Source: an uncultured Gammaproteobacteria bacterium (GTDB lineage Bacteria > Patescibacteriota > Patescibacteriia > 2-12-FULL-57-11). From it: a DNA stretch of 64,000 nt. The stretch spans positions 79,272 to 143,271 of the forward strand of contig CAZYLV010000002.1 in NCBI GenBank assembly GCA_964648865.1, read 5' to 3'. Shown here piece after piece: positions 869-53,051 of this stretch (within the stretch, counting starts at the first letter, position 1; each line of letters opens with the position of its first letter). The notes below the pieces were generated by a model that was not told the DNA's origin, did not search any database, and saw only the letters and a program-made list of their open reading frames with translations. The translations under genes were made by a program, and so were the position numbers.

Positions 869-958
869 CGCCGCAAACCCGGCAAACGTAGGATGTATCC
901 GCCTGGAGGGGGGCGGGGAACGCCCCATTTTCATACACGAACCGAAGACGCCCGCGCT

Positions 959-2491: not shown

Positions 2492-2500
2492 CCATCTCTC

Positions 2501-8003: not shown

Positions 8004-8028
8004 GCGGTCCCCCTGGGACCGCTTTTTC
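8004..8028. terminator. Bidirectional intrinsic terminator between convergent genes
   Basis: Hairpin GCGGTCCC-CCT-GGGACCGC followed by CTTTTTC. Confidence 0.55.
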
Positions 8029-9409
8029 ATTGCCCCTTGGCGCGGACGATGATGTTGAGCGTCCGCAGCAGGATGAAGAGGTCGAGCGGCACGCCTCGAT
8101 GCTTGACGTAGTAGAGGTCGTACTGGAGCTTCTTGAGGTTCTGCGCGATGGTGTTGGCGTAGGGGAACTCGATCTGCGCCCAGCCGGTGAGCCCGGGCCG
8201 CACCAGGTGGCGCATGGCGTAGAACGGCATCTCGCGCTCCAGCTCGGCCACGAACTCCGGCCGCTCCGGCCGCGGGCCGACGAAGCTCATCTCGCCCTTG
8301 AACACGTTCCAAAGCTGCGGCAGCTCGTCCACCCGCGTGGCCCGCAGCAGACGCCCGAGCGGGGTGACGCGCGGGTCGCCCTTCTCGGCGAAGCGCGCGC
8401 CGTCCTTCTCGGCATCGCGCACCATGGTGCGGAGTTTCCACATGCGGAACCCCTTGCCGCCACGGCCCACCCGGACCTGCGAGAAGAAGACCGGCCGTCC
8501 CTGCGTCAGGAGCATCGCCAGCAGCACGATCGGGAGCAGGACGACGCAGAGCGCCAGGCCGACGAGGGCCAAACCGACGTCAAGCGCGCGCTTGAAGAGG
8601 TCTCCGGCGTGCTTCTCGGCCTCGCGCAGGTTCTCCAGGAACCAGGCATGCGTGATGGCGGCCACCGGGACGCGGCGCGTGATGGTCTCGGAAAAGGACA
8701 CGGCGTCGACGAAGCGCACGCCCAAGAAGACGCTCTCGTAGAGCTGGCGGGCGAGCTCCGGCGACTGCCGCGGCGAGGCGCCGAGCACGACCGTGTCGGC
8801 GCGGCTCTCGCGCACGCGGCGCGCGAAGTCGGCGAACCCGCGCACCGTGAGCGGCGGCGGGTCTTCCGGCAACCAGGTGCCGCCTTCCGGCAGGATGATG
8901 CCGGCCACGTCGTAGCCGAGCGCGGGATTCGCGCGCAGTGCGGGCAGCAGCTCGCGCACCTCGTCGCTGTCGCCGACGAAGAGCACGCGCTGGCGCAGCA
9001 GCACGCCGCCGAACAGCGCGTTATAGGCCGCGCGCCAGGACGGGAAGAGCAGGGCGAAGGTCGCCAAGTGCAGGAGGAGCGTCGTCTTGGGGGCGATGCC
9101 CACGAACGGCGTGAGGTAGAAGAAGCCGATGGCCAAGAGCGCGGCCACGGCCAACGACGCGAAGAACGTGCCGAAGAACCGCAGCGTGTTGCGCGCCGCG
9201 CGCAGGTCGTACAGGCCGTTGGCAGCGAAGGTCAGCAGCCACAGCGCGAAGACCGCGGAATAGGGGATGACGTGCTCCCCGAAGTCGGGCCGCACCCCCG
9301 CGGCCCCGAGGCCGCGCAGGGACACGGCGATCCAGAGCGACGCGTACAGGACAAGCGCGTCGCCCCCCAGGAGAATGGCCCGTTTCAGCTTGACGGCGCG
9401 CGTTTCCAC
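8027..9409 (-). CDS. Polyprenyl glycosylphosphotransferase (WbaP/CpsE-type bacterial sugar transferase) that initiates glycan assembly on undecaprenyl phosphate
   Basis: N-terminal TM segments, then the C-terminal signature FRMWKLRTM...GPRPERPEFV of the bacterial sugar transferase family. The likely start is the GTG at 9409 (METRAVK). The remainder of the 742-aa ORF is antisense to the TPR gene. Confidence 0.75.
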   Translation of the reverse strand: METRAVKLKRAILLGGDALVLYASLWIAVSLRGLGAAGVRPDFGEHVIPYSAVFALWLLTFAANGLYDLRAARNTLRFFGTFFASLAVAALLAIGFFYLTPFVGIAPKTTLLLHLATFALLFPSWRAAYNALFGGVLLRQRVLFVGDSDEVRELLPALRANPALGYDVAGIILPEGGTWLPEDPPPLTVRGFADFARRVRESRADTVVLGASPRQSPELARQLYESVFLGVRFVDAVSFSETITRRVPVAAITHAWFLENLREAEKHAGDLFKRALDVGLALVGLALCVVLLPIVLLAMLLTQGRPVFFSQVRVGRGGKGFRMWKLRTMVRDAEKDGARFAEKGDPRVTPLGRLLRATRVDELPQLWNVFKGEMSFVGPRPERPEFVAELEREMPFYAMRHLVRPGLTGWAQIEFPYANTIAQNLKKLQYDLYYVKHRGVPLDLFILLRTLNIIVRAKGQ

Positions 9410-9469
9410 ATGGTCCAATACATGCCGATTGGGCCGAACGTACCACAGGAAACCGCCCGCTTCAAGCCT

Positions 9470-10180
9470 ATGCGGAACCGTCTTTTGGTCAGTCTCCTCG
9501 TCGCCTTCGGCATCGTCGTCATCGCCGGCGCCGGCTGGGCCTTCGTGGGCCGCGGCTGGTGGGACGAGCGGCAGCTCTCCGCGGAGATCGCGGCGCTCAA
9601 GGCGGACCCGCGCACCGCCGAGTCCGCCGAGCGGCTCGAGAAGAACATGCAGCGCGTCGCCGAGGATCCGGCGGACGTCGAGGCGCTCATCGGCCTGGGC
9701 AACTCCTGGAAGCAGGTCTTCGACATGACCGGTGAGGACACGCACGTCGTCCGTGCCATCGCCGCCTATGAGCGCGCCGTCGACGCGAGCCAGGGCAAGA
9801 ACACGGTGGTGCTCTCCAACCTTGCCACGGCCTATCGTCTGGCCAAGCGGCCCCAGCAGGCCGAGAACGTGCTGCGCGAGGCCATCGCCGCCAACGCCGG
9901 CGACCCCACGCTCTATATCCAGCTCGTGGAGGTGCTGCGCATCGACCTCAAGCGCGGGAGCGAGGAGATCATCGACGTCTATCGCCTCGGCCTCGACCAG
10001 CTCGTGGACAACGCGCCGCTCGTGCAATCGCTGGCCATCTACCTGGAGGACATCGGCCGGCTGCGCGACGCGCTCACCTACTACAAGCTGCTCGCGCCGA
10101 CGTATCCGACCATCGCCGAGAAGGTCGCGGAATTGGAGCGCCGCATCGCGCAGGAGGAGTCCGAATCCGCCGCCCCATGA
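9470..10180 (+). CDS. Membrane-anchored TPR-like repeat protein
   Basis: One N-terminal TM helix, followed by helical repeats rich in A, L and Y (AYERA, ATAYRLA). It is divergent from the WbaP-like gene. Confidence 0.55.
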   Translation: MRNRLLVSLLVAFGIVVIAGAGWAFVGRGWWDERQLSAEIAALKADPRTAESAERLEKNMQRVAEDPADVEALIGLGNSWKQVFDMTGEDTHVVRAIAAYERAVDASQGKNTVVLSNLATAYRLAKRPQQAENVLREAIAANAGDPTLYIQLVEVLRIDLKRGSEEIIDVYRLGLDQLVDNAPLVQSLAIYLEDIGRLRDALTYYKLLAPTYPTIAEKVAELERRIAQEESESAAP

Positions 10181-12414: not shown

Positions 12415-12418
12415 GCGT

Positions 12419-12853
12419 ATGCGGGCGCTGTTCTGGCAGACCGTCCGCTACGGGCTGGTCGGCGCCTCATCGACGGCGGTCGATTGGCTGATCTACTACG
12501 GCCTGACGCGGTCCGTGCCGCAGCTGCGCGAGTGGTACCTGGCGGCCAACGTCTGCTCCTTCTCCCTTGCCGTGATCTGGGGGTACCTCATGCATCGGCG
12601 TTTCACCTTCCGTGCCGGCGGCGCCCACCGCCATCAGTTCCCCAAGTTCCTTACGGTCACGCTCATCGGGTTGGGCATCAACAGCGCGACGCTGCACGTC
12701 GGCGTCGCGGTCCTCGGCCTCTACGACCTCACGGCCAAGGTCGCGGCCGTCGGCGTGACCGCCGTCTGGAACTACCTCGGCCAGCGTTTTTGGACGTTCC
12801 GCTTGTCCGCACCCCCCGGCGGCCCGTATACTGGGCCTGCCGACACGCCGTAG
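12419..12853 (+). CDS. GtrA-family membrane protein (flippase-associated subunit for polyprenyl-phosphate sugars)
   Basis: Small four-TM protein with the GtrA-like motifs (VRYGLVGASSTAVDWLIYY, WNYLGQRFWTF). Confidence 0.7.
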   Translation: MRALFWQTVRYGLVGASSTAVDWLIYYGLTRSVPQLREWYLAANVCSFSLAVIWGYLMHRRFTFRAGGAHRHQFPKFLTVTLIGLGINSATLHVGVAVLGLYDLTAKVAAVGVTAVWNYLGQRFWTFRLSAPPGGPYTGPADTP

Positions 12854-12857
12854 ACCT

Positions 12858-13877
12858 ATGCCTGTCACGCCCATATTCGAGAAGAAGAACGTGCTCGTCA
12901 CCGGAGGCGCAGGCTTCATCGGTTCGCACCTCTGCGAGAAGCTGCTCAAGGACGCCAAGGTCATCTGCCTGGACAGCTTCATCAACTCCGACGAGCGCAA
13001 CATCGACCACCTCCTCCAGAACCCCAACTTCGAGTTCATCCGCTGGAACGTCAACGAACCGCTCGACCTGGAGCAGTTCCCGGAGCTCGAGAAGTTCAAG
13101 GTGCGCTTCCAGGGCATCCAGGAGATCTACCATCTCGCCTGCCCCACGAGCATCAAGAATTTCGACCAGTTCCGGATGGACACGCTGCTCACCAACTGCG
13201 TGGGCATGCGCAACGCGCTCGACCTTGCGGTCAAGTACAAGGCCAAGTTCCTGTACGCCTCGAGCTCCGTGGTCTACGGACCGCGGCGGCCGGACGGCCT
13301 GCCCTTCCGGGAGGACGACATCGGCGCGGTCAACCACATGACGCCGCGCGGCTGCTACGACGAGGGCAAGCGCTTCGGCGAGACCATGGTCCAGACCTAC
13401 GCCGAGGTCTACGGGATGGACGCCAAGATCGCGCGCATCTTCCGGACCTACGGTCCGCGCCAGCGCCTCTTCGACGGCGAGCTGTTCTCGGACTTCATCG
13501 TCAACGCCATCGACGGCAAGGAGCTGACCATCTACGGCGACGAGACCTTCACGACCTCTCTGACCTACGTGGATGACGTCGTCGACGGCATCCTCAAGCT
13601 GATGAAGGCGCCGGCGACCATCGGGCCGGTCAACTTGGGCACGGACCACGACGTGCGCATCGTCGACGTGGCCAAGCTCATCTTGACGCTGACCCAATCC
13701 GGCTCCAAGGTCGTCTTCGAACCGGCCCTCATGTTCCTGACCCCGCTCGGTCTGCCCGACATCGGCAAGGCCAAGGAGCGCCTCGGCTGGTTGCCCTTGG
13801 TGCGGCTGGAGGACGGCATCAAGAAGGCCATCGACTACACGCAGGCCCATCGCTCGCTCATCTCCTTCGGCACATGA
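12858..13877 (+). CDS. UDP-glucuronate decarboxylase / UDP-xylose synthase-like SDR (NAD-dependent epimerase/dehydratase)
   Basis: VLVTGGAGFIGSHL, and the YHLACPTS...TN region resembles the UXS/ArnA decarboxylase core. Confidence 0.65.
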   Translation: MPVTPIFEKKNVLVTGGAGFIGSHLCEKLLKDAKVICLDSFINSDERNIDHLLQNPNFEFIRWNVNEPLDLEQFPELEKFKVRFQGIQEIYHLACPTSIKNFDQFRMDTLLTNCVGMRNALDLAVKYKAKFLYASSSVVYGPRRPDGLPFREDDIGAVNHMTPRGCYDEGKRFGETMVQTYAEVYGMDAKIARIFRTYGPRQRLFDGELFSDFIVNAIDGKELTIYGDETFTTSLTYVDDVVDGILKLMKAPATIGPVNLGTDHDVRIVDVAKLILTLTQSGSKVVFEPALMFLTPLGLPDIGKAKERLGWLPLVRLEDGIKKAIDYTQAHRSLISFGT

Positions 13878-14560
13878 AGACCGTCGCGGTCGTCCCGGCA
13901 TGGAACGAGGCGCAGGCCATCGGGGAGGTCCTCGATGGCCTTTTGCCGCGCGTCGACGCCATCGTCGTGGTCGATGACGGTTCGAGCGACCGCACGGGCG
14001 ACGTGGCCGCAGCCCGCCTGCGCGCCCATCGGCTGCGCGGCGGGGTGGTGCGCCATGTGCTGAACCGCGGTTTGGGCGCGGCGCTGGCTACCGGGATGCG
14101 CGCGGCGCTCGACGACGGCGCCGACGCCATCCTCACCTTCGACGCCGACGGCCAGCATCAGAGCGATGACGTGCCGGCCGTGCTCGCGCCCATCAAGGAG
14201 GGGAGCGCGGACGTGGTCATCGGCAGTCGCCTGCTCAATCCCCAGGGCATGCCGCTCGTGCGGCGCATCGCCAACCGCATCGGCAACGCCGTCACGGCCC
14301 TGCTCTTCGGCGCGCGCGTCACGGACTCGCAGTCCGGGCTGCGCGCCTTCTCGCGCCACGCCGCCGAGCGCATCGAAATCCGCACCGATCGGATGGAAGT
14401 CTCCTCTGAGATCGTGGCTGAGATCTTCCGCCACAAGCTGCGTCTCACCGAAGTGCCCATCAAGAGCGTCTACAGCCGCTACTCGATGTCCAAGGGCCAG
14501 GGCTTCTTGATGGGGCTGAAGACGTTGGGGCGGCTGATTATTCGGAGGGCGTTGCGATGA
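13874..14560 (+). CDS. GT2 polyprenyl-phosphate glycosyltransferase (GtrB/dolichol-phosphate-mannose-synthase-like)
   Basis: VVDDGSSD and DADGQH (DxD) motifs. The gene order GtrA, GT2, DUF2304 matches this family's usual context. Confidence 0.8.
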   Translation: MKTVAVVPAWNEAQAIGEVLDGLLPRVDAIVVVDDGSSDRTGDVAAARLRAHRLRGGVVRHVLNRGLGAALATGMRAALDDGADAILTFDADGQHQSDDVPAVLAPIKEGSADVVIGSRLLNPQGMPLVRRIANRIGNAVTALLFGARVTDSQSGLRAFSRHAAERIEIRTDRMEVSSEIVAEIFRHKLRLTEVPIKSVYSRYSMSKGQGFLMGLKTLGRLIIRRALR

Positions 14561-14901
14561 ACCTCTTCCTCCTCAAATACCTCGTCCCGCTCGTCGGCCT
14601 CATCGCCGTGCTCTTTGCCGTGCGGCGCTGGCGCAAGCGGGAGCTGCCGACGGGCCTGCTCGTCGCCTGGACGCTCTTGTGGGTCGCGCTCTCGCTCGTC
14701 GTGCAGCTGCCGCAGCAGACGGACGTGCTGGCTCGCATCCTCGGGGTCGGCCGCGGCGTGGACGTGCTGCTCTTTGCCTCCGTGGTGGCGCTGGTCCTCC
14801 TGCTGTTCCGTGTCTATCTGCGCATCGAGCGGATGGAACGCGAGATCACGACCGTGGTGCGCGAGCTGGCGCTGTTGCGTGCGGAGCAGGACAAGAAATG
14901 A
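14557..14901 (+). CDS. DUF2304-like small membrane protein, typical partner of GtrB-type GT2 enzymes
   Basis: ~114 aa with three TM helices and a charged C-terminal helix. Its start overlaps the upstream gene (ATGA). Confidence 0.6.
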   Translation: MNLFLLKYLVPLVGLIAVLFAVRRWRKRELPTGLLVAWTLLWVALSLVVQLPQQTDVLARILGVGRGVDVLLFASVVALVLLLFRVYLRIERMEREITTVVRELALLRAEQDKK

Positions 14902-16083: not shown

Positions 16084-17247
16084 ATGCGCATCGCCATCGC
16101 CGTCTCCACGTTCCCGCCGTATCGCGGGGGGATGGGCAATCTCGCCGCCACGCATGCGGCGCTCTTGGCTGCGGCAGGCCACACGGTGGAGGTGCTGACG
16201 GCGGTGGCCGGCCCGTCGCGCGTCGAGGAGCGCGACGGCTATACGGTGCGCTATCTCCGCGCGCCCGTGACCATGGGCAACGCGGCGTTCACGCCCCAGC
16301 TCTTCCAGGCGGTGCGCGGCGCGGACCTGGTGTTCCTGCACTATCCGTTCATCGGCGGGGCCGAGGCCGTGGCCCTGGCGCGGCGCACCCGGCAGTGGGG
16401 CGGGCGGTTGGCCGTCTATTACCACATGGACCTGGTGGGGCAGCCGCCGCGCGACGCGCTCTTCAGCGTCTACACGCAGCTGCTCATGCCCTGGATCGTG
16501 AAGAGCGCCGACCGCTTGGCCGTCTCCAGCTTCGACTACGCCATGACCGGCCAGCTCGCGGCGCTCTGGGGCCGCACCCCGGCCGACCATCTCGCCGAGC
16601 TGCCGCTCGCCGTGGACACGCAGGTCTTCTCGCCCGGACCGGCATCCGCGGCGCTGCGCGAACGCTTCCATCTGGCGCCCGACCTGCCGATCGTGCTCTT
16701 CGTCGGCGGCCTGGACGCCGCGCATTACTTCAAGGGGCTGGAGGTGCTGCTGCGCGCCGTGGCGCACAACGCCCGCAGCGGCGCACCATGCCAGCTCCTT
16801 GTCGTCGGCGACGGCGACCTGCGCCAGCGCTACGAGGCCATGGCGCACACCCTCGGCATCGTCGAGCAGGTGCGCTTCGCCGGTAACGCGCTGCGCGAGG
16901 AACTCCCCGATTTCTACCGTCTGGCCGACGTCTTCGTGCTGCCCTCCGTGGGACGCTCCGAGGCCTTCGGCATGGTGCTGCTCGAGGCCATGGCCTCCGG
17001 GACGCCCGTCGTGGCCTCACGGCTGCCGGGCGTGCGTACCGCCGTCGAGGACGGACGCACCGGACTGCTCGTCGAGCCGGCCAACGTCCAGGAACTGTCG
17101 TTGGCGCTCGCCCGGTTGCTTGCCGACCCTGAGGAGCGTTCCCGCATGGGTGAGGCCGGGCGCGCGCGCGTCGAGCGGCAGTATGCGCTGCCGGTGCTCG
17201 CGGAGGGGCTCACGCGCCTCGTCCATGACTTGACCTTCGGCGCATGA
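16084..17247 (+). CDS. Glycosyltransferase family 4 (GT-B, group 1)
   Basis: The C-terminal EAFGMVLLEAMASGTPVV matches the E-x7-E GT4 motif. Confidence 0.8.
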   Translation: MRIAIAVSTFPPYRGGMGNLAATHAALLAAAGHTVEVLTAVAGPSRVEERDGYTVRYLRAPVTMGNAAFTPQLFQAVRGADLVFLHYPFIGGAEAVALARRTRQWGGRLAVYYHMDLVGQPPRDALFSVYTQLLMPWIVKSADRLAVSSFDYAMTGQLAALWGRTPADHLAELPLAVDTQVFSPGPASAALRERFHLAPDLPIVLFVGGLDAAHYFKGLEVLLRAVAHNARSGAPCQLLVVGDGDLRQRYEAMAHTLGIVEQVRFAGNALREELPDFYRLADVFVLPSVGRSEAFGMVLLEAMASGTPVVASRLPGVRTAVEDGRTGLLVEPANVQELSLALARLLADPEERSRMGEAGRARVERQYALPVLAEGLTRLVHDLTFGA

Positions 17248-19262
17248 AGATCGCGCTCTTGGGCGGGCTGTACCCGCCGCACGGCGGCGGCGCCGAGCGC
17301 GCCACGGAGCTCCTGGCGCGCGGCTTGGTCGCGCTCGGGCACGAGGTCCATGTGCTGACCACGGCCCGCGAGGCCGTGACGGAGACGCGCGACGGCGTCG
17401 TGGTGCATCGCCTCGCGCCGCGGCATGCCTGGATCGGCGACGTCTTTTCCCGACCGTTCGCGGAACGGGCGCGGTGGAACGTCGCGGAACTGCTCGACCG
17501 TCGCATGACCGCGGCGATCGTGCGTGAGCTCGAGCGGCTCGCGCCCGCGCTGGTCATCACTTCCAACCTGAAGGGGCTCGGCGGAGCGCTGCCGGCCGCG
17601 CTCGGCCGCCTGCCGTGGCCGTACGTCCACGTCGCCCATGATTTCGAGCCCGTCGAACCGATGCTGCTCGGCGTCCATGACCGCGCCGACCGGGTGCGCA
17701 ACCGCGCCTGGGCCGCGCTCTCGCGCCGGCGCTGGGGCGCGCCGGATGCTGTCGTCTACCCGAGCGCCTGGCTGCAGCACTTGCTCGCGACGCATCGCGT
17801 GTTCGCGGGCAGCCGGCAGGCGGTGATCCCCAATGCGGTGGATGTGTCCGGTGTAGGGGCGTATGGCAATACGCCCCTACCGAATGGACCGTTCCGCCTG
17901 CTGTTCATCGGCCAGCTCGAGCCGCACAAAGGGGCGCTCTGGGCGGCCGAGGCGCTGCGTTCCTGGGACGCGCCCTGGACGCTCGACGTCGTCGGCGAGG
18001 GGAGCGAGCGTGCCGCCATCGACGCCAAACGCGACGGCCGCATCCGCACGCACGGGCGGCTCGCCGGCGCCGCGCTCGAGGAGCGGTGGACCCAGGCCGA
18101 CGCGCTCATCGTCCCCTCGCGCTGCCTGGAGAACGCGCCGCTGGTGGTCTTTGAGGCCGCGGCACGGCGCGTCCCCGTGGTGGCCGCGGACGTCGGCGGC
18201 ATCCCGGAGTGGGTGCTGCCCGGAGAGAACGGCTGGCGGTTCGCCGCCGAGGACGGCAAGGCCTTCCGTTTCGCGCTGGCCACGGCCGCGGACCCGACGC
18301 GCCGCGCGGCGTTGCGCTGGCAGCAGCTGCCGCCGTTGCGCACGCCCGAGCAGTACGCACGGGAGATCTTGGCGCTCGCCCCGCAGGCGCCGACCGCACC
18401 GCCCGTGGCGCCGGCCCCCGGCATCCTCGACCTGCTGCCCGCAGACCTGTCCGGTTTCAAGAAAGACGAGGCGCATTACCACGACCACGCCACGCACGAC
18501 GCCGTGCACGTCCATCAGCTCAACGCCTTCCGCAACCGCTTCTATCACGCCCGCATCTTCCGGCATCTGCGTCCGGTGGCGCCGGACGGTTGGGTGCTGG
18601 AGCTCGCAGGCGGCAGCGGCGAGGACGGCGCCGATGCGGTGCGGCGCGGGCTGAAGGTGATCGAGACGGACATCTCCAAAGGCGCGGTCGAGGATGCGGT
18701 ACGGACGCTCTCCGCCGTGCCGGGCAGCGACGGCCGCTTCATCGCCGCGACCATGGACGCCGAGCGCATCCCGTTCCCGGAGGGGAGCGTCGCCGGCGCC
18801 TGGATGACGGCGAGCTTCCACCACGCCGAGGATCCCGCGGCCGTGCTGCGCGAGGTCCGTCGCGTGCTCGCGCCCGGCGCGCGGTTCGCCGCGGCCATCG
18901 AGCCGCATCGCCTGTACTTCGGGACGATCAACTTCTTCAAGCCCGCGCTCGACGCGTTGCTCGGCAGGCGTGCCGAGAAGTCCGTGGCCGACGAGGAGCA
19001 CAGCGGCTTCTGGCGCGGCGAACTGCGTGCGCATTTCGAGAAAGCCGGCTTCACCGACATCCGCGTCGAGCCGATGTGGTTCACGGCCGGCATCCTGCAT
19101 TACAAGCTCGAATTCCTCTCGCGCCTCTTCAAGACGGAACAGCGGCTGCGCGTGCCGTTGTGGATCGAGAAAGCGTGCGTGTACTTCGACGAGTTCGTCT
19201 TCCGTCTGCCGGGCGGCGTGTATCTCGCCTGGCACTGGACGGCGTCGGGCAGGAAACCCTAG
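17244..19262 (+). CDS. Bifunctional GT4 glycosyltransferase fused to a C-terminal class I SAM-dependent methyltransferase
   Basis: The GT4 half contains FEAAARRVPVVAADVGGIPE. The methyltransferase half contains VLELAGGSGEDG (motif I) and VLAPGARF (post-I). Confidence 0.75.
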   Translation: MKIALLGGLYPPHGGGAERATELLARGLVALGHEVHVLTTAREAVTETRDGVVVHRLAPRHAWIGDVFSRPFAERARWNVAELLDRRMTAAIVRELERLAPALVITSNLKGLGGALPAALGRLPWPYVHVAHDFEPVEPMLLGVHDRADRVRNRAWAALSRRRWGAPDAVVYPSAWLQHLLATHRVFAGSRQAVIPNAVDVSGVGAYGNTPLPNGPFRLLFIGQLEPHKGALWAAEALRSWDAPWTLDVVGEGSERAAIDAKRDGRIRTHGRLAGAALEERWTQADALIVPSRCLENAPLVVFEAAARRVPVVAADVGGIPEWVLPGENGWRFAAEDGKAFRFALATAADPTRRAALRWQQLPPLRTPEQYAREILALAPQAPTAPPVAPAPGILDLLPADLSGFKKDEAHYHDHATHDAVHVHQLNAFRNRFYHARIFRHLRPVAPDGWVLELAGGSGEDGADAVRRGLKVIETDISKGAVEDAVRTLSAVPGSDGRFIAATMDAERIPFPEGSVAGAWMTASFHHAEDPAAVLREVRRVLAPGARFAAAIEPHRLYFGTINFFKPALDALLGRRAEKSVADEEHSGFWRGELRAHFEKAGFTDIRVEPMWFTAGILHYKLEFLSRLFKTEQRLRVPLWIEKACVYFDEFVFRLPGGVYLAWHWTASGRKP

Positions 19263-21325
19263 CGTCGATAGACGAACACCGTCACCGAATCGTCCACCTC
19301 GAACACGTCGTCCGCCTCCCGCATCGCCTCAGCCGCGATGCGGGCGCTGTCTTTCCAGAAGGCGTTGACGACGAAGTAGGCTTCCTCCACGACGTTCGCT
19401 TCCATGGCCCGTTGCGCGGTCGCACGGGTGGGCGCGGCGTTCATCTCGAGGAAGAGGGCGTTGAGCTCCGGCGCGCCTGACTCGTTGGCGTAGGCGAAGG
19501 GGATGCCGGGGAAGGAGACGAAGCCGTGCTCGCGGATGGCGGCAGCGGCGATGGTCTGGTCGGCCAGGACGATGTGCCGACGGCCTTCGGCGTGCGCCTC
19601 GATCCACTGCGCCGCGGCGACGGCGCCTGCGGAGACGGCGTACCCTTTGGATGGCTCGATGCGGTCGACGCGCGGGAAGGAGACGTAGGTCGTGGCCGCG
19701 ACCAGCGCCGCCAGCATGCCCGCGGATGCCAGGCGGCTCGCGACGTGGCGCGCCAGCCGCTCCCACAGGAAGACGAGTCCGGCCCCGGCCACCGGCAGCA
19801 GGACGACGGCGGCCAGTTCGACGAGCCGGGCGCGGAACGGGAAGGCCGCGGCACCGACGTCGCCGGCTTCCGGGAAGCGCAGGAATTGCAGGAGCAGGAA
19901 GGCGAGGATCAATCCGCTCGTGGCCGCCTGGAGGGAGCGGATGCCTGCGCGCCAAGCGGGCGGTGCGTTGCGGGCGGCGAACAGCATCCCGCCGACCAAT
20001 GCAATCGGGACCGTGGCACGCCAGAGGTAGGGAAGATCCAGGACGAGGTCGCCGGAGGGGGCGAACGGCGGCCAGCTCGCCGCGAGCGAGCGGAGCGCGT
20101 CGAAGGGGGCGAAGGTCCACGCGATCCTCATGCCGCCGACGAGCGCGTTGGCGATGAACGCGGCCGGGACGCCGAGGGCGGTCAGCGCGAACCCGGCCGT
20201 ACGGGCGAGGCGCTCGGGGAGACCGGGCTTCTTCCGTTCGGCGACGATGAGCAACAGCAGCCCGAGCGTGGGGATGCCGACCAGCGGATGCACGGCCAGC
20301 GCGGCCAGCGTCCCGGCGACGGCCGGTGCGAGCGGGAGCGCACCGGCGCGCCAGGCGATGCCGGCGCCGGCCACGAGCAGCGCAAAGAGGTAGGCCACGC
20401 CGGTCGGCGTGGTCGCGGCGTAGGCCCCGAAGGGCAGGAGCAGCGGCGCGAGCGCGGCCAGGCGGTGGCCGGCCTTGGCGGTCATGCCGCGCGCGGTCCA
20501 GGCGCACACCAGCGGCGCGAGGATGGCGAAGCCGAGCGGCACGGCCAGGCGATCGAGCGGGATGTGCGGCAGGAGCGTGACGCGGGAGAGCAGGGTCACC
20601 AGCGCGTACTGGCCGATGTAGTACGGCGTCTTGGGCTCGACGACGCCCTCGCGCAGGATGATGCCCTCGGCCGCCTGGTGGACGAACTGGTCGAAGCCGT
20701 ACCCGATGCCGTAGACGGCGAGCGCAGGGGAGGCCGCCACGAACGCCAGGAGGATGGCGGCCGGCAGGGCGGCGCGCGTCTTGCCGCGCACCAGCAGGGC
20801 GACAAGCGGCAGCCCGGCGGCCGCAAGCAGCGTGAAGAACGCCGGGGAGACCGTCTGCCACGGCGACGAGACGGCGGTGAGCGTCCGGCCGGCAGCGAGG
20901 ACGCCCATGGCGGCCAGAAGCACGGCGCCCGCCAGGCCGACGAGCGCGACGTCCATGAGCGGCGGCGCGGGGCTCCGGATGATGCGGAAGACGGGCACGA
21001 CCTGCGTCCGCCAGGCGAGCACGGCGGCCAGCGCCGCCGTGCCGACCCAGAGCACCATGCAGGAGACCGGCGAGAGGTCGACCGCCGCGTAGAGCCCGGC
21101 TCCGGCGACCATGAACCAGCACAGCAGCAGGAAGGTCCCGCCGAGGTGCTGGTCGAGCAGGCCGCGGCCCCGGAAGAAGATCGCCCCCAACGCCGCCGCC
21201 TCGAGCAGCAGGAGCGCCGCTGCCGAGACCGCGGCCAGGACCGGGACATCAAGAAAAACCGCGAGCAGGTTCGCGGCTAGGAGGGCAAAAACGGCCGTGC
21301 TATAGTGCCTCGGTACCAATTGCAT
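19259..21325 (-). CDS. Large polytopic membrane protein (~689 aa, 14 or more predicted TM helices) with a C-terminal soluble domain. Candidate GT-C-fold glycosyltransferase or polymerase.
   Basis: Long hydrophobic stretches across the N-terminal ~520 aa and a hydrophilic C-terminal ~170 aa. The opposite-strand ORF 19526..21280 is Arg/Gly/Glu-rich and was rejected. Confidence 0.6.
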   Translation of the reverse strand: MQLVPRHYSTAVFALLAANLLAVFLDVPVLAAVSAAALLLLEAAALGAIFFRGRGLLDQHLGGTFLLLCWFMVAGAGLYAAVDLSPVSCMVLWVGTAALAAVLAWRTQVVPVFRIIRSPAPPLMDVALVGLAGAVLLAAMGVLAAGRTLTAVSSPWQTVSPAFFTLLAAAGLPLVALLVRGKTRAALPAAILLAFVAASPALAVYGIGYGFDQFVHQAAEGIILREGVVEPKTPYYIGQYALVTLLSRVTLLPHIPLDRLAVPLGFAILAPLVCAWTARGMTAKAGHRLAALAPLLLPFGAYAATTPTGVAYLFALLVAGAGIAWRAGALPLAPAVAGTLAALAVHPLVGIPTLGLLLLIVAERKKPGLPERLARTAGFALTALGVPAAFIANALVGGMRIAWTFAPFDALRSLAASWPPFAPSGDLVLDLPYLWRATVPIALVGGMLFAARNAPPAWRAGIRSLQAATSGLILAFLLLQFLRFPEAGDVGAAAFPFRARLVELAAVVLLPVAGAGLVFLWERLARHVASRLASAGMLAALVAATTYVSFPRVDRIEPSKGYAVSAGAVAAAQWIEAHAEGRRHIVLADQTIAAAAIREHGFVSFPGIPFAYANESGAPELNALFLEMNAAPTRATAQRAMEANVVEEAYFVVNAFWKDSARIAAEAMREADDVFEVDDSVTVFVYRR

Positions 21326-21349
21326 GGGGGCATCATAGCACGGCCGGAT

Positions 21350-21922
21350 ATGCGCGACCCCGCGATCCCGTACCCGCACGACCGGTTGCTGGCGGCGACC
21401 CTGCTGCGGCTCATCCCGCGCTGGGTCCAGCCCAACCACATCACCATCCTGCGCTTCCTGGCGACGCCCTTCGTCGTCTGGCTTGTCGCCGCCGGACATC
21501 TCTACGAGGGCATCGTCGCCTTCGTCGTCGTGGCCTCCACGGACGCCATCGACGGGGCCATGGCGCGCACCCGCAAGCAGATCACCGAGTGGGGGACGCT
21601 CATGGACCCGCTCGCCGACAAGCTGCTCATCGGCGCCATGGTCGTGGTCATCGTCTTCGAGCACGTCAATCCGATCCTCGGCGTCACCATCATCTCCCTC
21701 GAGGCGCTGATGCTCGTCGGCGGTTACATCCGCCTGCGGCGCGGCATCGTGAAACCCGCCAACACCTGGGGCAAGATCAAGATGATCCTGCAGTGCGCCG
21801 GCGTCCTGCTGCTGCTCGTCGCCGTGGCCACCGGCATCGACCTGTTCATCCCGGTGTCCGGTGCCGTCTTCGCGCTGGCGTTGGTCTTCGCCCTGGTCTC
21901 GCTGCTGACCCACGGCATATGA
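21350..21922 (+). CDS. CDP-alcohol phosphatidyltransferase family protein
   Basis: DAIDGAMAR...G...DPLADK matches D-G-x2-A-R-x8-G-x3-D-x3-D. Possible starts are 21305 or 21350. Confidence 0.75.
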   Translation: MRDPAIPYPHDRLLAATLLRLIPRWVQPNHITILRFLATPFVVWLVAAGHLYEGIVAFVVVASTDAIDGAMARTRKQITEWGTLMDPLADKLLIGAMVVVIVFEHVNPILGVTIISLEALMLVGGYIRLRRGIVKPANTWGKIKMILQCAGVLLLLVAVATGIDLFIPVSGAVFALALVFALVSLLTHGI

Positions 21923-24331: not shown

Positions 24332-24343
24332 GCCCGAAGGAGC

Positions 24344-25093: not shown

Positions 25094-26122
25094 ATGAAGC
25101 TGCTCGTCACGGGCGGTGCGGGCTTCATGGGTTCGGCCTTCGTCCGCCGGATGCTCTTGGCGCACGAGGACGTCGCGATCGTCACCTACGACGCGCTGAC
25201 CTACGCCGGCAACCTCGAGAACCTGCGCGCCGTGGAGGGGGACCCGCGCCACCGTTTCGTGAAGGGCGACATCCTCGACGCGGCCCGGGTGGCCGCCGCG
25301 CTTGACGGCGTCGATGCCGTCGCCCACTTCGCGGCCGAATCGCACGTCGACCGCTCGGTGCTCGACCCGCAGGCCTTCTTCCGCACCAACGTGCTGGGCA
25401 CGCAGACGCTCATCCAGGCCTGCCGCGCCGCGGGCGTGCGGCGCTTCCACCATGTCTCGACCGATGAGGTCTACGGCGACCTGGGGCTCGACGAGGACCG
25501 CGCCTTCCGGGAGGGCGACATGCTCGATCCGCGCTCGGCCTATGCCGCGTCCAAGGCGGGCTCTGACCATGTGGTCCTGGCCTACGCCCATTCCTTCGGC
25601 ATGGAGGTCACGGTGAGCCGCAGCTGCAACAATTACGGGCCGTATCAGTTCCCGGAGAAGCTCATCCCGCTCTTCATCACAAACGCGCTCGAGGACAAGC
25701 CGCTGCCGCTCTTCCGGAGCAGCCGCAACCGTCGCGAGTGGATCCATGCCGACGACCACGCCGCGGCGGTCGCGCTCATCCTGCGGGGCGGGAAGCACGG
25801 CCGGATCTACAACATCGGCACCGGCGTGGAGCGGTCGATCGAGGACATCGCCGACGCCGTCCTGGCGGCGCTTGACAAGCCCTCCTCGCTCAAGACCTAC
25901 GTCCCGGACCGGCCCGGTCACGACCGCCGCTACGCGGTGGACTCCTCCACGCTGCGGCGCGAGCTCGGCTGGGCACCGACGGTGGCCTTCGAAGACGGGC
26001 TCGCCGCGACCATCACCTGGTACAAGGACCATCCGGAGTGGTGGCGCGACGTGAAGTCCGGCGCCTACCAAGCGTATTACGAGCGCTACTACACGGAGAC
26101 GCTCGGCACGCAGACGCCATGA
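25094..26122 (+). CDS. rfbB: dTDP-glucose 4,6-dehydratase
   Basis: LVTGGAGFMGS, YAASKAGSD, and overall RmlB-like architecture. Confidence 0.85.
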   Translation: MKLLVTGGAGFMGSAFVRRMLLAHEDVAIVTYDALTYAGNLENLRAVEGDPRHRFVKGDILDAARVAAALDGVDAVAHFAAESHVDRSVLDPQAFFRTNVLGTQTLIQACRAAGVRRFHHVSTDEVYGDLGLDEDRAFREGDMLDPRSAYAASKAGSDHVVLAYAHSFGMEVTVSRSCNNYGPYQFPEKLIPLFITNALEDKPLPLFRSSRNRREWIHADDHAAAVALILRGGKHGRIYNIGTGVERSIEDIADAVLAALDKPSSLKTYVPDRPGHDRRYAVDSSTLRRELGWAPTVAFEDGLAATITWYKDHPEWWRDVKSGAYQAYYERYYTETLGTQTP

Positions 26123-26682
26123 CGACCATCGAGACCGGCATCCCAGGGCTCGTGCTGCTCGAGCCGACGGTGTTCACCGACGAGCGGGGATCGTTCTTCG
26201 AGGCGTTCAACGCCACGGCGTTCGCGGCGCTCGGCGCGCCCACGGACGTCGTGCAGATCAACCAGAACCGCTCCAAGAAGGGCGTGCTGCGCGGGTTGCA
26301 CTTCCAGGCGCCGCCGCACGGCCAGTCCAAGCTGGTACGCTGCATCCGCGGCGCGCTCTACGACGTCGCCGTGGACATCCGCCGCGGCTCGCCGACCTAC
26401 GGGAAGTGGTTCGGCGCCGAGCTGACCGAGGAGAACCGACGCACGCTGGCCATCCCGAGCGGGTTCGCGCACGGCTTCTGTGCGCTCACCGACGGTTGCG
26501 AGATGCTCTACGTGGTCGGCCACGCCGGGTACGCCAAGGAGGCCGAAGGCGGCCTGCGCTTCGACGACCCGGCGCTCGGCATCGCGTGGCCCGTGCCGGC
26601 GGGGGAGGCGCCGCTCGTCAACGTGCGCGACCGCGCCTGGCCGACGCTCGACGCCCTGGAGTCGCCGTTCGTCTTTTCCTGA
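26119..26682 (+). CDS. rfbC: dTDP-4-dehydrorhamnose 3,5-epimerase
   Basis: RmlC cupin motifs FFEAFN, RGLHFQ and KLVRCIRG. Confidence 0.85.
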   Translation: MTTIETGIPGLVLLEPTVFTDERGSFFEAFNATAFAALGAPTDVVQINQNRSKKGVLRGLHFQAPPHGQSKLVRCIRGALYDVAVDIRRGSPTYGKWFGAELTEENRRTLAIPSGFAHGFCALTDGCEMLYVVGHAGYAKEAEGGLRFDDPALGIAWPVPAGEAPLVNVRDRAWPTLDALESPFVFS

Positions 26683-26753
26683 GGGGCTGGACACGCCGCG
26701 GAATGTCGCGTAGGTTCCTCCGCGAGTCCAGCTCAGCTGGGCGAGGAGGAACC

Positions 26754-27458
26754 ATGCCCTTTACCCCCAAGCCGCCGCCTTCGCCGCCGCGGCTGATCCT
26801 GGCGGACGCCGGCAACGTCCGCGTGGTCTACCGCACCGATCACCGCGCCGAGACCATCGCCCGGTGGCTGTCGCTCGAGGTCGAGGCGGTCACCGCGCTC
26901 ATCCACCGCTCGCACGCCTTCCACCAGCTGGAGCGCGGCGAGTGCACCTGGGAACACTACGTCTCGTTCATCGAGACGACGGTCCAGAAGCGCACCGCCG
27001 CGCCGGAGCTCTGGAACCGCGCGCGGTTCGAGGAGATCTGGGTGGAGGCGCTCACCGGGCCCATCGTGCCGGTCCTCGAGATGCTCGAGGCGCTCGCCAA
27101 GCACGTGCCGGTGGTCTCGGCGTCCAACGTGGACGTCGTGTCCTACGAGCGGGGCGTGGCGCGCGATCCGCGCGTCACGGCGATGCTCTCGGTGCACAGC
27201 GACTCCTTCGTCATCGGTCGCCGCAAAGGAGATCCGGACTACTTCGAGCGCCTGCTGGCCTTCGTCAACGGCGCGCTCGGCACGGACGTCCGGGCCGAGG
27301 AGTGCGTCTTCATCGACGACCGGGTCGAGTACGTGACCGCGGCCATCGGCGCCAAGATGCGCGCCTTGTGGTTCGCCGACCGCCGGCCCGAGGACGTGCA
27401 TGTCCTCCGGCATGAGCTGGTCCAGCGCGGCGGCGTCCCCGCCGAGTGGCTTCCCTGA
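26754..27458 (+). CDS. HAD-like hydrolase, paralog A (degenerate motif I: DAGNV)
   Basis: ILADAGNV at the N-terminus and FIDDR at the C-terminus (motif IV-like). It is similar to the next gene. Confidence 0.55.
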   Translation: MPFTPKPPPSPPRLILADAGNVRVVYRTDHRAETIARWLSLEVEAVTALIHRSHAFHQLERGECTWEHYVSFIETTVQKRTAAPELWNRARFEEIWVEALTGPIVPVLEMLEALAKHVPVVSASNVDVVSYERGVARDPRVTAMLSVHSDSFVIGRRKGDPDYFERLLAFVNGALGTDVRAEECVFIDDRVEYVTAAIGAKMRALWFADRRPEDVHVLRHELVQRGGVPAEWLP

Positions 27459-27516
27459 CGGGGCGGCCCTTTTCTTTTTCCGGCGGATGCCGTAGGTTGC
27501 CGCGCAGGAGGGACCA

Positions 27517-28206
27517 TTGAAACCGTTGAAGTTCATCCTGTCGGACGTCGGCGGCGTGCTGATGCACGTCGATCGGTACGGCCGCGAGCATGCGCTGTCC
27601 CGGCAGTACGGGCTCGACCCGCGCGCGTTGCGCGAGCTGCTCTACGACGAGCGCCTCTTCCACGCCTTGGAGCGTGGGACGCTGGGCTGGGAGGTCTACC
27701 GCGAGACCCGGCTGGCGCACCTGCGCGCGATGGGCGCGGCGCTCGAGGAGGACGCCGAGGGACGCTTCGATGCCACGTGGGTGAGCATCCTGCGCGAGCC
27801 GGTGATGCCGGTGGCGCGCATGTGGCTCGCCCTGCGCAATCGGCTGGAGATCGTCTCGGTCTCCAACGTCGACCCGGTGAGCTACGAGTACGGCGTCCGC
27901 CACCACGCCATGGTCGCCGGGTGCTTCTCGCGGGACGACACGCACTCCTTCCGCTTCGGGCGGAGGAAGGGCGACGACGACTACTTCCCGGCGCTGCTCG
28001 AACGGCTCGACGCGCACCCGGAGGAGTGCCTGTTCGTGGACGACCTGCGGGAGCACGTGGTCGCCGCCAAACGCTACGGCATGGACGTCGTCTGGATGCG
28101 CGAGATCAGCGAGGGCTCGCTGCTCGAGCTCCGGCTGCGGCTCATCGAGCGCGGCGTGGACGCCGAGGCCCTGCCGGAGGGCTGGGCGCCCGGCCCGCGC
28201 TGCTAG
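27517..28206 (+). CDS. HAD-like hydrolase, paralog B (motif I: DVGGV)
   Basis: ILSDVGGVL and FVDD. TTG start with an AGGAGG RBS. Collinear similarity to paralog A (VSNVDPVSYEYGV vs VSASNVDVVSYERGV, FRFGRRKGDDDYF vs FVIGRRKGDPDYF). Confidence 0.55.
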   Translation: MKPLKFILSDVGGVLMHVDRYGREHALSRQYGLDPRALRELLYDERLFHALERGTLGWEVYRETRLAHLRAMGAALEEDAEGRFDATWVSILREPVMPVARMWLALRNRLEIVSVSNVDPVSYEYGVRHHAMVAGCFSRDDTHSFRFGRRKGDDDYFPALLERLDAHPEECLFVDDLREHVVAAKRYGMDVVWMREISEGSLLELRLRLIERGVDAEALPEGWAPGPRC

Positions 28207-28259
28207 CGCCTTCCGGCGCTTTTTCTTTTCTCCCACCGCTGCTAGAGTGGCTGCGACCT

Positions 28260-29099
28260 ATGAAGATCCTGATCATCGGGGCCAAGGGGATGCTCGGCCA
28301 GGAGCTCGCCCGCACCTTCGCCGACCAGCAGCTCACGCTGTGGGACCGCGAGGAAGTCGACATCACCAAGCCCGAGGAATACGGCCTCAAGATCACCGAG
28401 GTCGGCCCCGACCTCATCATCAACGCCGCGGCCATGAACGACGTCGACGGCATCGAGAAGGACGATACCGTCGCGAAACTGGTGAACGGCAGCGCCGTCG
28501 GCTCCATCGCCGACATGTGCTCCATCCTCGGCATCCTGATGGTCCACTACTCCACGGACTACGTCTTCGACGGCATCAAGACCGCGGGCTACGTGGAGAG
28601 CGACAAGCCCGACCCCATCAGCAAGTACGGCGAGAGCAAGCTGCTCGGCGAGCGGTTGCTCAAGCAGGCCACGAGCGAGTATTACCTCATCCGCACCTCG
28701 CGGCTCTTCGGCGCTCCCGCGGCGGCCGAAGGCGCCAAGGCCAGCTTCGTGGACAAGATCATCGCCAAAGCCAAGGAAGGCGGGCCGCTCCAGCTCATCG
28801 ACGCCGAAGTGAGCGCGCCGACCTACGCTCCTGACCTGGCGGCGCGCACCCGGGAGATCCTGGCGCAGCGCAAGCCCTTCGGCATCTACCACGTGACCAA
28901 CGCCGGCGGCTGTACCTGGTACCAATTCGGCAAGAAGGCGCTGGAGCTGGTCGGCCTCGACGTGCCGGTGGAGCCCGTCGGGCCGGATGCCTTCCCACGC
29001 CCGGCCAAGCGCCCGGCGCATTCCGTGCTCAAGAGCACCAAACTCCCCCCGATGCGCTCCTGGGAGGAGGCGCTTGCCGAATACCTGGAGAAGCGGTAA
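28260..29099 (+). CDS. rfbD: dTDP-4-dehydrorhamnose reductase
   Basis: ILIIGAKGMLG, YSTDYVFDG and YGESK are RmlD signatures. Confidence 0.85.
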   Translation: MKILIIGAKGMLGQELARTFADQQLTLWDREEVDITKPEEYGLKITEVGPDLIINAAAMNDVDGIEKDDTVAKLVNGSAVGSIADMCSILGILMVHYSTDYVFDGIKTAGYVESDKPDPISKYGESKLLGERLLKQATSEYYLIRTSRLFGAPAAAEGAKASFVDKIIAKAKEGGPLQLIDAEVSAPTYAPDLAARTREILAQRKPFGIYHVTNAGGCTWYQFGKKALELVGLDVPVEPVGPDAFPRPAKRPAHSVLKSTKLPPMRSWEEALAEYLEKR

Positions 29100-29108
29100 A
29101 ACGCGCGC

Positions 29109-30185
29109 ATGAAAGCGGTCCTCACGGGAGGAGGGCGCGCCACCCGGCTGCGGCCCATCACCTACACCTGGAACAAGCACCTCATCCCGCTTGCCAACAA
29201 GCCGATGATTTTCCACGCCATCGAGAAGGTCGTGGACGCCGGCATCACGGACATCGCCATCAACACCAACCCCGGCGAGACCGAGCTCCAGAAGGCCATC
29301 GGCGACGGCAGCCGCTGGGGCGCGCGTATCCATTTCTTCGAGCAACAGGGCGGCCCGCTCGGCATCGCCAACGTGCCCAAGCAGGCGCAGGAGTGGATCG
29401 GAGACGGTCCCTTCCTGTTCTACCTTTCGGACAACATCGTGCTCGGGGACATCAGGCATCTGGTGTCGAAGTTCAACGACGAGCGGCACGATGCGCTGAT
29501 GACCCTGGCGAAGGTCCCGGACGCACGGCGCTTCGGCGTCCCGGAGTTCCAGGACGGCAAGATCGTCCGGCTCGAGGAGAAGCCGGCGCAGCCCAAGTCG
29601 GACTACGCCGTGACCGGGCTGTACGTGTTCAACAACGACTTTTTCCGCGCCTACGATACCGTCAAGCCATCGGTGCGCGGCGAGTACGAGATCACCGAGA
29701 TCTACAACTGGTACCTCGCCAACGCCAAGAAGGTCGGCCATGCCGAGATCACCGGGTGGTGGAAGGATACCGGCAAGCCCGAGGACCTGCTCGAGGGCAA
29801 CCAGCTCATCCTGGACGAGATGACGCCGGCCGAGGCGGTGCGCGAGGGGACGATCGATCCGGGCGCGACGGTCCAGGGCAAAGTGCGCATCGGAAAGGGG
29901 AGCACGATCGGCCCAGGCACGCTCATCCGCGGTCCGGTGGCCATCGGGGACGACTGCACCATCGAGGCGAGCTACATCGGTCCGTATACCTCCATCGGCG
30001 ACAACGCCACCGTCCGCGGCGCCGAGATCGAGCACTGCATCGTCTTCGATAACGTCACCGTGAACTGCCAGGCCCGCATCGTGGATTCGCTCATCGGCAA
30101 GGATGCCTGCGTGACCTCCAAGCAAGGGACGCGCCCACACGGGCACAAGTTCGTGATCGGGGACAACGCGCGGGTGGAGATTTAA
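29109..30185 (+). CDS. rfbA: Glucose-1-phosphate thymidylyltransferase (long form with a C-terminal left-handed beta-helix)
   Basis: GGGRATRLRPIT sugar-nucleotidyltransferase motif and a hexapeptide-repeat C-terminal domain. Confidence 0.8.
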   Translation: MKAVLTGGGRATRLRPITYTWNKHLIPLANKPMIFHAIEKVVDAGITDIAINTNPGETELQKAIGDGSRWGARIHFFEQQGGPLGIANVPKQAQEWIGDGPFLFYLSDNIVLGDIRHLVSKFNDERHDALMTLAKVPDARRFGVPEFQDGKIVRLEEKPAQPKSDYAVTGLYVFNNDFFRAYDTVKPSVRGEYEITEIYNWYLANAKKVGHAEITGWWKDTGKPEDLLEGNQLILDEMTPAEAVREGTIDPGATVQGKVRIGKGSTIGPGTLIRGPVAIGDDCTIEASYIGPYTSIGDNATVRGAEIEHCIVFDNVTVNCQARIVDSLIGKDACVTSKQGTRPHGHKFVIGDNARVEI

Positions 30186-45611: not shown

Positions 45612-45684
<73 letters not shown>

Positions 45685-45711
45685 CAGAGCAACGGATTTT
45701 CGCGTCCTCTC

Positions 45712-53050: not shown

Positions 53051-53051
53051 C

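Follow-up and report, generated by a model that had tools for sequence, protein, structure and literature searches.

Proteins that join a glycosyltransferase to a methyltransferase in one polypeptide are already known, and WsaE of Geobacillus stearothermophilus NRS 2004/3a, A064R of chlorovirus PBCV-1 and ORF6 of Klebsiella pneumoniae O7 are fused precedents from characterised loci (PMC2943079, PMC9614988, PMC11231755), which is where the original prediction on the present DNA had advised looking for such an architecture. Here we analyse a gene of this kind in a 64-kb stretch of contig CAZYLV010000002.1; this whole stretch is called the window, and positions are counted from its first letter. 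The gene encodes a protein of 672 amino acids (aa) with an N-terminal domain of glycosyltransferase family 4 (GT4) and a C-terminal class I methyltransferase dependent on S-adenosylmethionine (SAM). As enzymology the finding is incremental, since fused glycosyltransferase-methyltransferases have been characterised before. What is new here is a single GT4 domain of GT-B fold followed by a C-terminal methyltransferase of a zinc-ribbon family, in Patescibacteria, at a locus where no ruler and no ATP-binding cassette (ABC) transporter was found.

WsaE, an enzyme of S-layer glycan assembly, carries an N-terminal methyltransferase and two rhamnosyltransferase domains and forms a 2-O-methyl cap, its methyltransferase acting on the sugar that the same protein has added (PMC2943079). 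Compared by description, the protein of the window is like WsaE in that one polypeptide holds a glycosyltransferase and a putative O-methyltransferase of a lipid-linked glycan pathway and rml genes are present in the locus, whereas WsaE has its methyltransferase at the N-terminus, works with a Wzm/Wzt transporter and adds a terminating cap, and here the methyltransferase is C-terminal, the N-terminal GT4 domain is single and no transporter was found. The domain order is that of A064R, with glycosyltransferase first and a class I SAM methyltransferase at the C-terminus, and in A064R the C-terminal methyltransferase 2-O-methylates, in vitro, the terminal rhamnose supplied by the preceding domain (PMC9614988). 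However, A064R is a viral enzyme of a protein N-glycan and uses UDP-L-Rha, and neither of its two rhamnosyltransferase domains is GT4, one being the founder of a new glycosyltransferase family. ORF6 of Klebsiella O7 combines a methyltransferase, a kinase, a coiled coil and two GT2 modules; as in ORF6 and in the WbdD/WbdA pair of E. coli O9a, a methyltransferase is here physically coupled to cytoplasmic glycan assembly (PMC11231755), but the kinase partner, methyl-phosphate cap, coiled-coil ruler and ABC transporter of those systems are all absent.

The two domains also have relatives that act as separate proteins. RebM and AtmM (PDB 3bus and 6uv6), the best-scoring solved relatives of the methyltransferase, are indolocarbazole glucosyl 4'-O-methyltransferases that methylate a sugar hydroxyl of a glycoside; they are stand-alone tailoring enzymes of natural products and share about 20% identity with the module studied here, within the Rossmann core only. 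The features that mark its family outside this core, namely the N-terminal helical cap, the zinc ribbon and a C-terminal extension of 117 residues, are lacking in both. In the methylmannose polysaccharide system of mycobacteria, ManT, a retaining GT4 hexosyltransferase, cooperates with the SAM sugar O-methyltransferases MeT1 and MeT3, and ManT (7qsg) is among the top structural matches of our GT4 domain, although its likeness is no greater than that of MshA, PimA or tll1591. ManT, MeT1 and MeT3 are separate proteins, and their product is a cytoplasmic polymethylated polysaccharide and not an envelope glycan.

The 672 codons of the gene are open in one continuous frame on the forward strand. 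Its ATG overlaps the TGA of the GT4 gene upstream (ATGA), which suggests translational coupling, and at the other end its TAG shares bases with the stop of the convergent downstream gene (CTAG). Since the guanine plus cytosine (GC) content of the window is about 69-70%, with a range of 64-73%, and such DNA holds many spurious long open reading frames, we checked GC by codon position. Third-position GC was about 0.9 and second-position GC about 0.5 in the same frame throughout 17240-19260, and the coding signal remained unbroken in the inter-domain stretch 18320-18440; therefore, neither a frameshift nor a junction of two genes was indicated. An internal start near 18400, which the original prediction had not seen either, was rejected: the coding signal does not break there, and the linker is simply not conserved. 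Pfam placed Glyco_transf_4 at residues 15-201 (E 6.5e-19, 69 bits against a cut-off of 28.5), Glycos_transf_1 and Glyco_trans_1_4 at residues 211-345 (E 1.7e-16 and 3.2e-21, the former scoring 60.7 bits against a cut-off of 26.4) and Methyltransf_11 at residues 452-549 (E 1.6e-13, 51.5 bits against 21.2). NCBIfam gave generic GT4 and UbiE/MenG-like matches only, all below threshold, and no transmembrane segment was predicted in the protein.

The same 672-aa sequence, 100% identical, was present on contigs of two other sequencing runs, and homologue search of NCBI, JGI, ENA and Logan assemblies yielded nine more full-length orthologue clusters (672-701 aa, 53-83% identity), all with both the GT4 and the methyltransferase Pfam domains and with every catalytic motif kept. 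Read-through is ruled out by the identical protein in the two other runs together with these nine full-length clusters, and the chance that the gene is an assembly or read-through artefact joining two genes, a danger which the original prediction had itself raised, is negligible, the continuous coding frame refuting it as well and nothing having been found in its favour. The single polypeptide of GT4 and class I SAM methyltransferase thus stands as proposed, on the domain scan, on the alignment of the ten proteins and on the two other runs. In that alignment, 34% of the columns in each glycosyltransferase lobe and 35-39% of those in three methyltransferase segments were invariant, as against 0% in the linker. 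The similar share in both halves argues for comparable purifying selection on both.

Two of the nine clusters are labelled "Patescibacteria group bacterium", and in a scan of one genome per species the fusion occurred in two Patescibacteria metagenome-assembled genomes (MAGs) only, under the same label. The fusion gene is genuine, and a small set of Patescibacteria with high GC has conserved it. Patescibacteria are usually low in GC, yet the orthologues of a gene from such high-GC DNA bear this label, and the source appears to be a high-GC lineage of the group. Orthologues are present in the groundwater MAG FW602_bin.41.

The N-terminal domain is a CAZy GT4 enzyme of GT-B fold, as judged from Pfam, from its sequence motifs and from the modelled fold. 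Both glutamates of its EX7E motif (E296-NAPLVVF-E304) are invariant in the ten orthologues, as are G14-G16 of the N-terminal glycine-rich loop and K229 (HKG), at the conserved Lys/Arg position that binds the donor phosphate. The model of the full-length fusion was moderate (predicted local distance difference test, pLDDT, of 74), also in the GT4 C-lobe, and at this value it does not show how the two domains are placed relative to each other. With Foldseek the glycosyltransferase part matched MshA, glycogen synthase, tll1591, ManT, PimA, BshA and WaaG; the matches to MshA, tll1591, ManT, PimA, BshA and WaaG had E values from 1e-14 to 1e-10 and target-normalised template-modelling (TM) scores of 0.68 or less. 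A sequence-profile search of the PDB agreed with this set of retaining GT4 enzymes. The relatives use UDP-GlcNAc, UDP-Glc or GDP-Man (MshA, PimA, tll1591, ManT), and neither the profile search nor Foldseek discriminated among donor sugars. GT4 enzymes are retaining, and known L-rhamnosyltransferases are mostly inverting enzymes of GT1 or GT2, with a few exceptions in GT4; WbdA is a GT4-type mannosyltransferase. The upstream GT4 shares only weak, local similarity with the GT4 domain of the fusion, and recent duplication of the two was rejected on this ground.

Three parts make up the C-terminal module of 280 residues: a helical cap at its N-terminus (396-444), the Rossmann core (445-555) and a C-terminal extension of 117 residues (556-672), which is conserved and bears SVADEEH and LAWHW motifs. 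The sequence LELAGGSGEDG, which had been read as motif I within a linker together with a post-I motif, occupies residues 452-462, the beta1-loop of the Rossmann core; both motifs belong to the methyltransferase core (452-476), and the true linker is the segment 378-395. Within motif I (E453-L-A-G-G457-S-G459-E-D461), E453, L454, A455, G457, G459 and D461 are invariant in the ten orthologues. So are D476 at the end of beta2, D505-A-E507 and H526-H527, down to 53% identity. A model of residues 393-672 built on 32 family members reached a pLDDT of 94.4 and a predicted TM-score of 0.91, and Foldseek matched it with probability 1.00 to many class I methyltransferases. By motifs and modelled fold, the module is a class I SAM-dependent methyltransferase of Methyltransf_11 type.

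AtmM, a glucosyl O-methyltransferase, was the best Foldseek match of this model, with TM-scores of 0.55-0.65 across the matches. When the family profile was compared with the PDB, RebM ranked first (E 2e-26) and AtmM next (E 9e-24), and the alignment took in the LHHxPD motif. A catalytic role has been proposed for the two histidines of RebM. The alignment with RebM and AtmM is limited to about 105 residues of the Rossmann core (TM 0.55-0.62), and methyltransferases that do not act on sugars score nearly as well. Thus the ranking and the aligned HH motif modestly, not decisively, favour a sugar O-methyltransferase.

A word-indexed homologue search with the methyltransferase module alone returned three weak generic methyltransferases only, and exhaustive HMMER search was needed to reveal the stand-alone family to which it belongs. 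In a library where each representative stands for one cluster at 50% identity, residues 393-672 matched 1863 representatives at E<=1e-3, of which 106 reached E<=1e-10. Stand-alone proteins of about 310 residues (300-330 aa) came out best, with end-to-end alignments at 28-44% identity and an N-terminal zinc ribbon. The GT4-fused family had a single representative (P0008), from which we take the fusion to be rare and confined to one lineage. Other members of the methyltransferase family are joined to GT4 plus GT2 (P0103, 916 aa), to GT2 (P0116), to a GT4 fragment plus zinc ribbon (P0070) and to a lipid A-type acyltransferase (P0130). None of the stand-alone and alternatively fused relatives had a protein name in any source.

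The linker between the domains of the window protein is rich in proline and alanine, and none of its 18 columns is invariant. At the same position, in alignment columns ~410-440, the three most divergent fused orthologues (P0008-P0010) carry a CxxC...CxxC zinc ribbon, which has been cleanly deleted from the window copy and its closer relatives. The alignment suggests that the zinc ribbon becomes dispensable once the methyltransferase is tethered to GT4.

In more distant Patescibacteria we found the GT4 without the methyltransferase. Two unfused orthologues (P0011 and P0012; 386-394 aa, 28-29% identity to the GT4 domain) lie in the same slot, in the order GT2/GT4, orthologous GT4 and a reverse-strand membrane protein of ~680 aa. 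A CDP-alcohol transferase then follows in the P0011 locus only, not in that of P0012. Both loci also hold a large membrane protein, with a weak PMT_2 match in the P0012 locus, and no methyltransferase gene was present within 8 kb of either GT4. A metagenome locus scan with a 6-sequence alignment gave two loci, one of them informative. On the L016 contig, of low GC (37-41%), a stand-alone zinc-ribbon methyltransferase with 40% identity to the window module lies immediately upstream of a stand-alone GT4 (30% identity across the whole GT4 domain, E 8e-50), and a homologue of the reverse-strand membrane protein (28% identity, E 2e-51) comes next. One orthologous GT4 therefore exists in four states: alone, beside an adjacent methyltransferase, fused with a zinc ribbon, and fused without it. 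Judged by sequence, these four states are an evolutionary series inside one conserved Patescibacteria cluster, presumably for an envelope glycan. The occurrence of the split pair and of the fusion, a Rosetta stone relation, argues that the two activities serve a single step of one pathway, while the same cluster without a methyltransferase in relatives argues that methylation is an optional add-on.

The fusion gene is the last of a co-directional forward block, and the gene of the polyprenyl glycosylphosphotransferase, a phosphoglycosyltransferase, lies divergently upstream (Table 1). Synteny is kept around the fused orthologues in three other assemblies. The shared order runs phosphoglycosyltransferase (reverse strand), TPR protein, S8 peptidase, GtrA, epimerase, PpgS-like GT2, DUF2304, GT2, GT4 and GT4-methyltransferase, and continues with the reverse-strand membrane protein, the CDP-alcohol transferase, the GT-C-like protein and, after further genes, RmlB and RmlC. 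A GT2 described as WbbL-like had been taken for the upstream neighbour. The gene directly upstream is instead another GT4, which is kept at this position in all orthologous loci, and the GT2 scored 36.3 bits against the TIGR01556 cut-off of 200.55, its best match being MftF (51.9 bits). The TPR protein and the subtilase are conserved between the phosphoglycosyltransferase and the glycosyltransferase block in orthologous loci.

The genes at 12356-14901 resemble that arm of a three-component extracytoplasmic glycosylation system which provides the sugar donor on a lipid carrier, an analogy in which the model of PpgS, a polyprenyl-phospho-GalNAc synthase, aligns end to end with the 228-aa GT2 below its cut-off. 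We take the set of GtrA-like, PpgS-like, DUF2304 and GT-C-like proteins to be comparable to mycobacterial Rv3631/Rv3632/Rv3779 and to Gtr systems. The convergent membrane protein has a soluble C-terminal domain of about 130 aa and gave no Pfam and no PDB match in sequence searches. It is tail-to-tail with the GT4 or GT4-methyltransferase gene in the orthologous loci that could be read far enough, low-GC relatives included. In some of these loci it abuts that gene or overlaps its stop, and in others one or two genes lie between them. It is a candidate for the flippase, polymerase or ligase that the pathway is missing. The CDP-alcohol phosphatidyltransferase is kept inside the glycan cluster in most related loci, and its presence there would fit a phospho-alcohol substituent or a glycolipid with a phospholipid anchor, on the logic of phosphatidylinositol mannosides. 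Pfam and PDB sequence searches found no match for the window copy of the GT-C-like protein. In all related loci the three small open reading frames follow the GT-C-like gene in one and the same order, with the HIT-family protein next.

Table 1. Position, strand and supporting evidence of the fusion gene, its parts and the genes around it (positions of the window; bits are given as score against model cut-off).
Feature	Position	Strand	Evidence or remark
Polyprenyl glycosylphosphotransferase (Bac_transf), initiating enzyme	8027..9499, start approximate	-	TIGR03025, 343 bits against 296
Subtilase (Peptidase_S8), 745 aa, FG-GAP repeats	10177-12414	+	TPR protein precedes
GtrA-like protein	12356-12853	+	
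SDR epimerase/dehydratase	12858-13877	+	
PpgS-like polyprenyl-phosphate sugar synthase GT2, 228 aa	13874-14560	+	PpgS model, 158 bits
DUF2304	14557-14901	+	
GT2 glycosyltransferase, 376 aa	14905..16035	+	Weak TIGR01556 match
Upstream GT4 glycosyltransferase, 400 aa	16045..17247	+	Stop/start overlap with fusion gene
GT4-methyltransferase fusion gene, complete, 672 aa	17244..19262	+	Pfam, codon-position GC
GT4 domain (GT-B, retaining-type), residues 1-377	17244..18374	+	Pfam, invariant columns, Foldseek, PDB profile search
Inter-domain linker, Pro/Ala-rich, residues 378-395	18375..18428	+	Alignment
Methyltransferase module, 280 aa, residues 393-672	18420..19259	+	Pfam, alignment, HMMER, model
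Convergent polytopic membrane protein, likely 688 aa	19259..21325	-	~13 hydrophobic segments
CDP-alcohol phosphatidyltransferase	21305-21922	+	E 1.3e-29
GT-C-like membrane protein, ~532 aa	~21919-23517	+	Orthologues match PMT_2 weakly
Three small open reading frames (~166, 107, 111 aa), no family	23511-24679	+	Order conserved
HIT-family protein	24676-25092	+	
rmlB	~25094-26122	+	NCBIfam, 420.8 against 365.1
rmlC	~26130-26682	+	NCBIfam, 211.9 against 155.75
rmlD	~28242-29099	+	NCBIfam, 253.6 against 224.05
rmlA, long form	29109-30185	+	NCBIfam, 376 against 320.25

The nearby rml genes that had been predicted are indeed there: a complete rmlABCD set lies 6-11 kb downstream, with all four genes above their NCBIfam equivalog cut-offs. 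Genes of HAD-type hydrolases are interspersed among them (25094..30185). From these genes and the GT2 a methylated deoxyhexose had been proposed, methyl-rhamnose and methyl-mannose-type residues being given as examples of a methylated sugar. A methylated deoxyhexose is possible but unsupported. No evidence links the GT4 domain specifically to dTDP-rhamnose or GDP-mannose, and around the distant unfused orthologues P0011 and P0012 there is an RmlB-like or epimerase gene in one case only and a full rml set in neither. Since nothing identifies the donor sugar and the full set is absent at these two loci, methyl-rhamnose or methyl-mannose remains a guess.

Other parts of the window hold further genes of interest. 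At 146-3598 the forward strand encodes a cytidylyltransferase (CTP_transf_3), a NeuB-family synthase of 532 aa in which the C-terminal cupin domain is an unusual partner, and a GFO/IDH/MocA oxidoreductase; this block suggests synthesis of a nonulosonic or ulosonic acid in the CMP-sugar style. An undecaprenyl-diphosphate synthase is encoded at 45634-46401. A PBP2-type transpeptidase (52896-54821) and a Mur ligase (54827-56131) precede two tandem, apparently overlapping Ser/Thr protein kinase genes (56218-59735, forward strand).

We consider, with a probability of roughly 0.6, that the fusion is a soluble or peripheral cytoplasmic bifunctional enzyme which glycosylates a lipid-linked envelope glycan and then O-methylates the glycan. 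In this scheme the polyprenyl glycosylphosphotransferase would begin a glycan linked to polyprenyl diphosphate, the GT2 of 376 aa and the upstream GT4 would lengthen it, and the GT4 domain of the fusion would add a hexose from a nucleotide sugar by a retaining mechanism. The methyltransferase domain would then O-methylate the glycan with SAM at the cytoplasmic face, most probably on the residue just added by the GT4 domain, or on an adjacent one. After export, the three-component system (PpgS-like with DUF2304, GtrA-like, GT-C-like) would add a sugar outside the membrane. The acceptor, the sugar and its donor, the methylated position and the order of the two reactions are inferred; for the fusion, the reading that makes most sense is one of glycosylation coupled to methylation. 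Most likely the methyl group is a lineage-specific decoration and not an obligatory step, because related Patescibacteria run the same pathway without the methyltransferase.

Several points weigh against this assignment. Among the large open reading frames of the window we recognised no flippase, Wzx or Wzm/Wzt transporter by which the type of pathway could be defined. The CDP-alcohol phosphatidyltransferase in the locus means that the acceptor could be a phospholipid-anchored glycolipid and not an undecaprenyl-linked glycan. The choice of a sugar as acceptor and of O-methylation as reaction would follow from sequence, model and precedent, and the likeness to RebM and AtmM on which it partly draws covers the Rossmann core only (~105 residues), with a phosphoethanolamine N-methyltransferase, TleD and a geranyl-diphosphate C-methyltransferase close behind in both searches (TM 0.55-0.65).

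The methyl acceptor might accordingly be something other than a sugar hydroxyl, such as a lipid head group, a protein, or a substituent of phospho-alcohol or amine type, phosphoethanolamine being one example. Phosphoethanolamine N-methyltransferases and methyltransferases of lipids and terpenoids score almost like the sugar O-methyltransferases, the conserved CDP-alcohol phosphatidyltransferase could install a phospho-alcohol, and one family member (P0130) is joined to a lipid A-type acyltransferase. Against this, the fused or adjacent partners of the family are mostly glycosyltransferases, as in the window protein, P0103, P0116, P0070 and L016, and the top two profile matches are glycoside O-methyltransferases whose HH motif of the catalytic region is aligned. 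We regard a non-sugar acceptor as unlikely.

It is also quite unlikely, in our view, that the methyltransferase is a chain terminator whose methyl cap at the non-reducing end halts elongation and flags the chain for export by an ABC transporter, in the manner of WbdD of E. coli O8/O9a, WsaE and Klebsiella O7 ORF6. The characterised methyltransferases that are fused to or associated with glycan assembly are mostly terminators, and the fusion is the last cytoplasmic glycosyltransferase gene of its operon. However, Wzm/Wzt ABC transporter genes were found neither among the large open reading frames of the window nor in the orthologous loci, and the protein has no coiled-coil ruler, no kinase domain and no long helical region, its linker being only 18 residues. 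Moreover, relatives run the cluster with the GT4 orthologue and no methyltransferase; therefore, a methyl cap cannot be an essential export signal. Finally, a catalytically dead methyltransferase domain, appended to the GT4 for structure, oligomerisation or the sensing of SAM, is very improbable: the zinc ribbon of stand-alone relatives and of deeper-branching fused orthologues has been lost here, but the SAM-binding motifs and the HH/E-P residues are invariant in the ten orthologues down to 53% identity, and the methyltransferase part is as strongly conserved as the glycosyltransferase lobes.

On the reading of the fusion as an enzyme of coupled glycosylation and O-methylation, the gene is a testable handle, a soluble two-domain enzyme that ends a conserved envelope-glycan operon, for which nature supplies controls in orthologues without methyltransferase, with a separate methyltransferase, and in fused forms that keep or lack the zinc ribbon. 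The uncharacterised zinc-ribbon methyltransferases (106 representatives, E<=1e-10) can now also be given a probable role in methylating glycans. To our knowledge, there is next to no experimental knowledge of the surface glycans of Patescibacteria (bacteria of the candidate phyla radiation, CPR), which live attached to other cells, and a literature search for work on their envelope glycans gave nothing relevant. More speculatively, the fusion may mark an uncharacterised envelope glycoconjugate pathway found throughout Patescibacteria, in which one lineage captured a zinc-ribbon methyltransferase. The core of that pathway could, equally tentatively, be drawn as GT2, two GT4s, the 13-transmembrane-segment protein of ~690 aa, the CDP-alcohol phosphatidyltransferase, the GT-C-like protein and small proteins without assigned family. 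If so, a high-GC groundwater lineage would have fused the methyltransferase to the last cytoplasmic glycosyltransferase and thereby placed an O-methyl sugar on its surface glycan. The product of the cluster would then be a new kind of lipid- or wall-anchored glycopolymer, on which the methyl group would alter recognition by the host or by phages.

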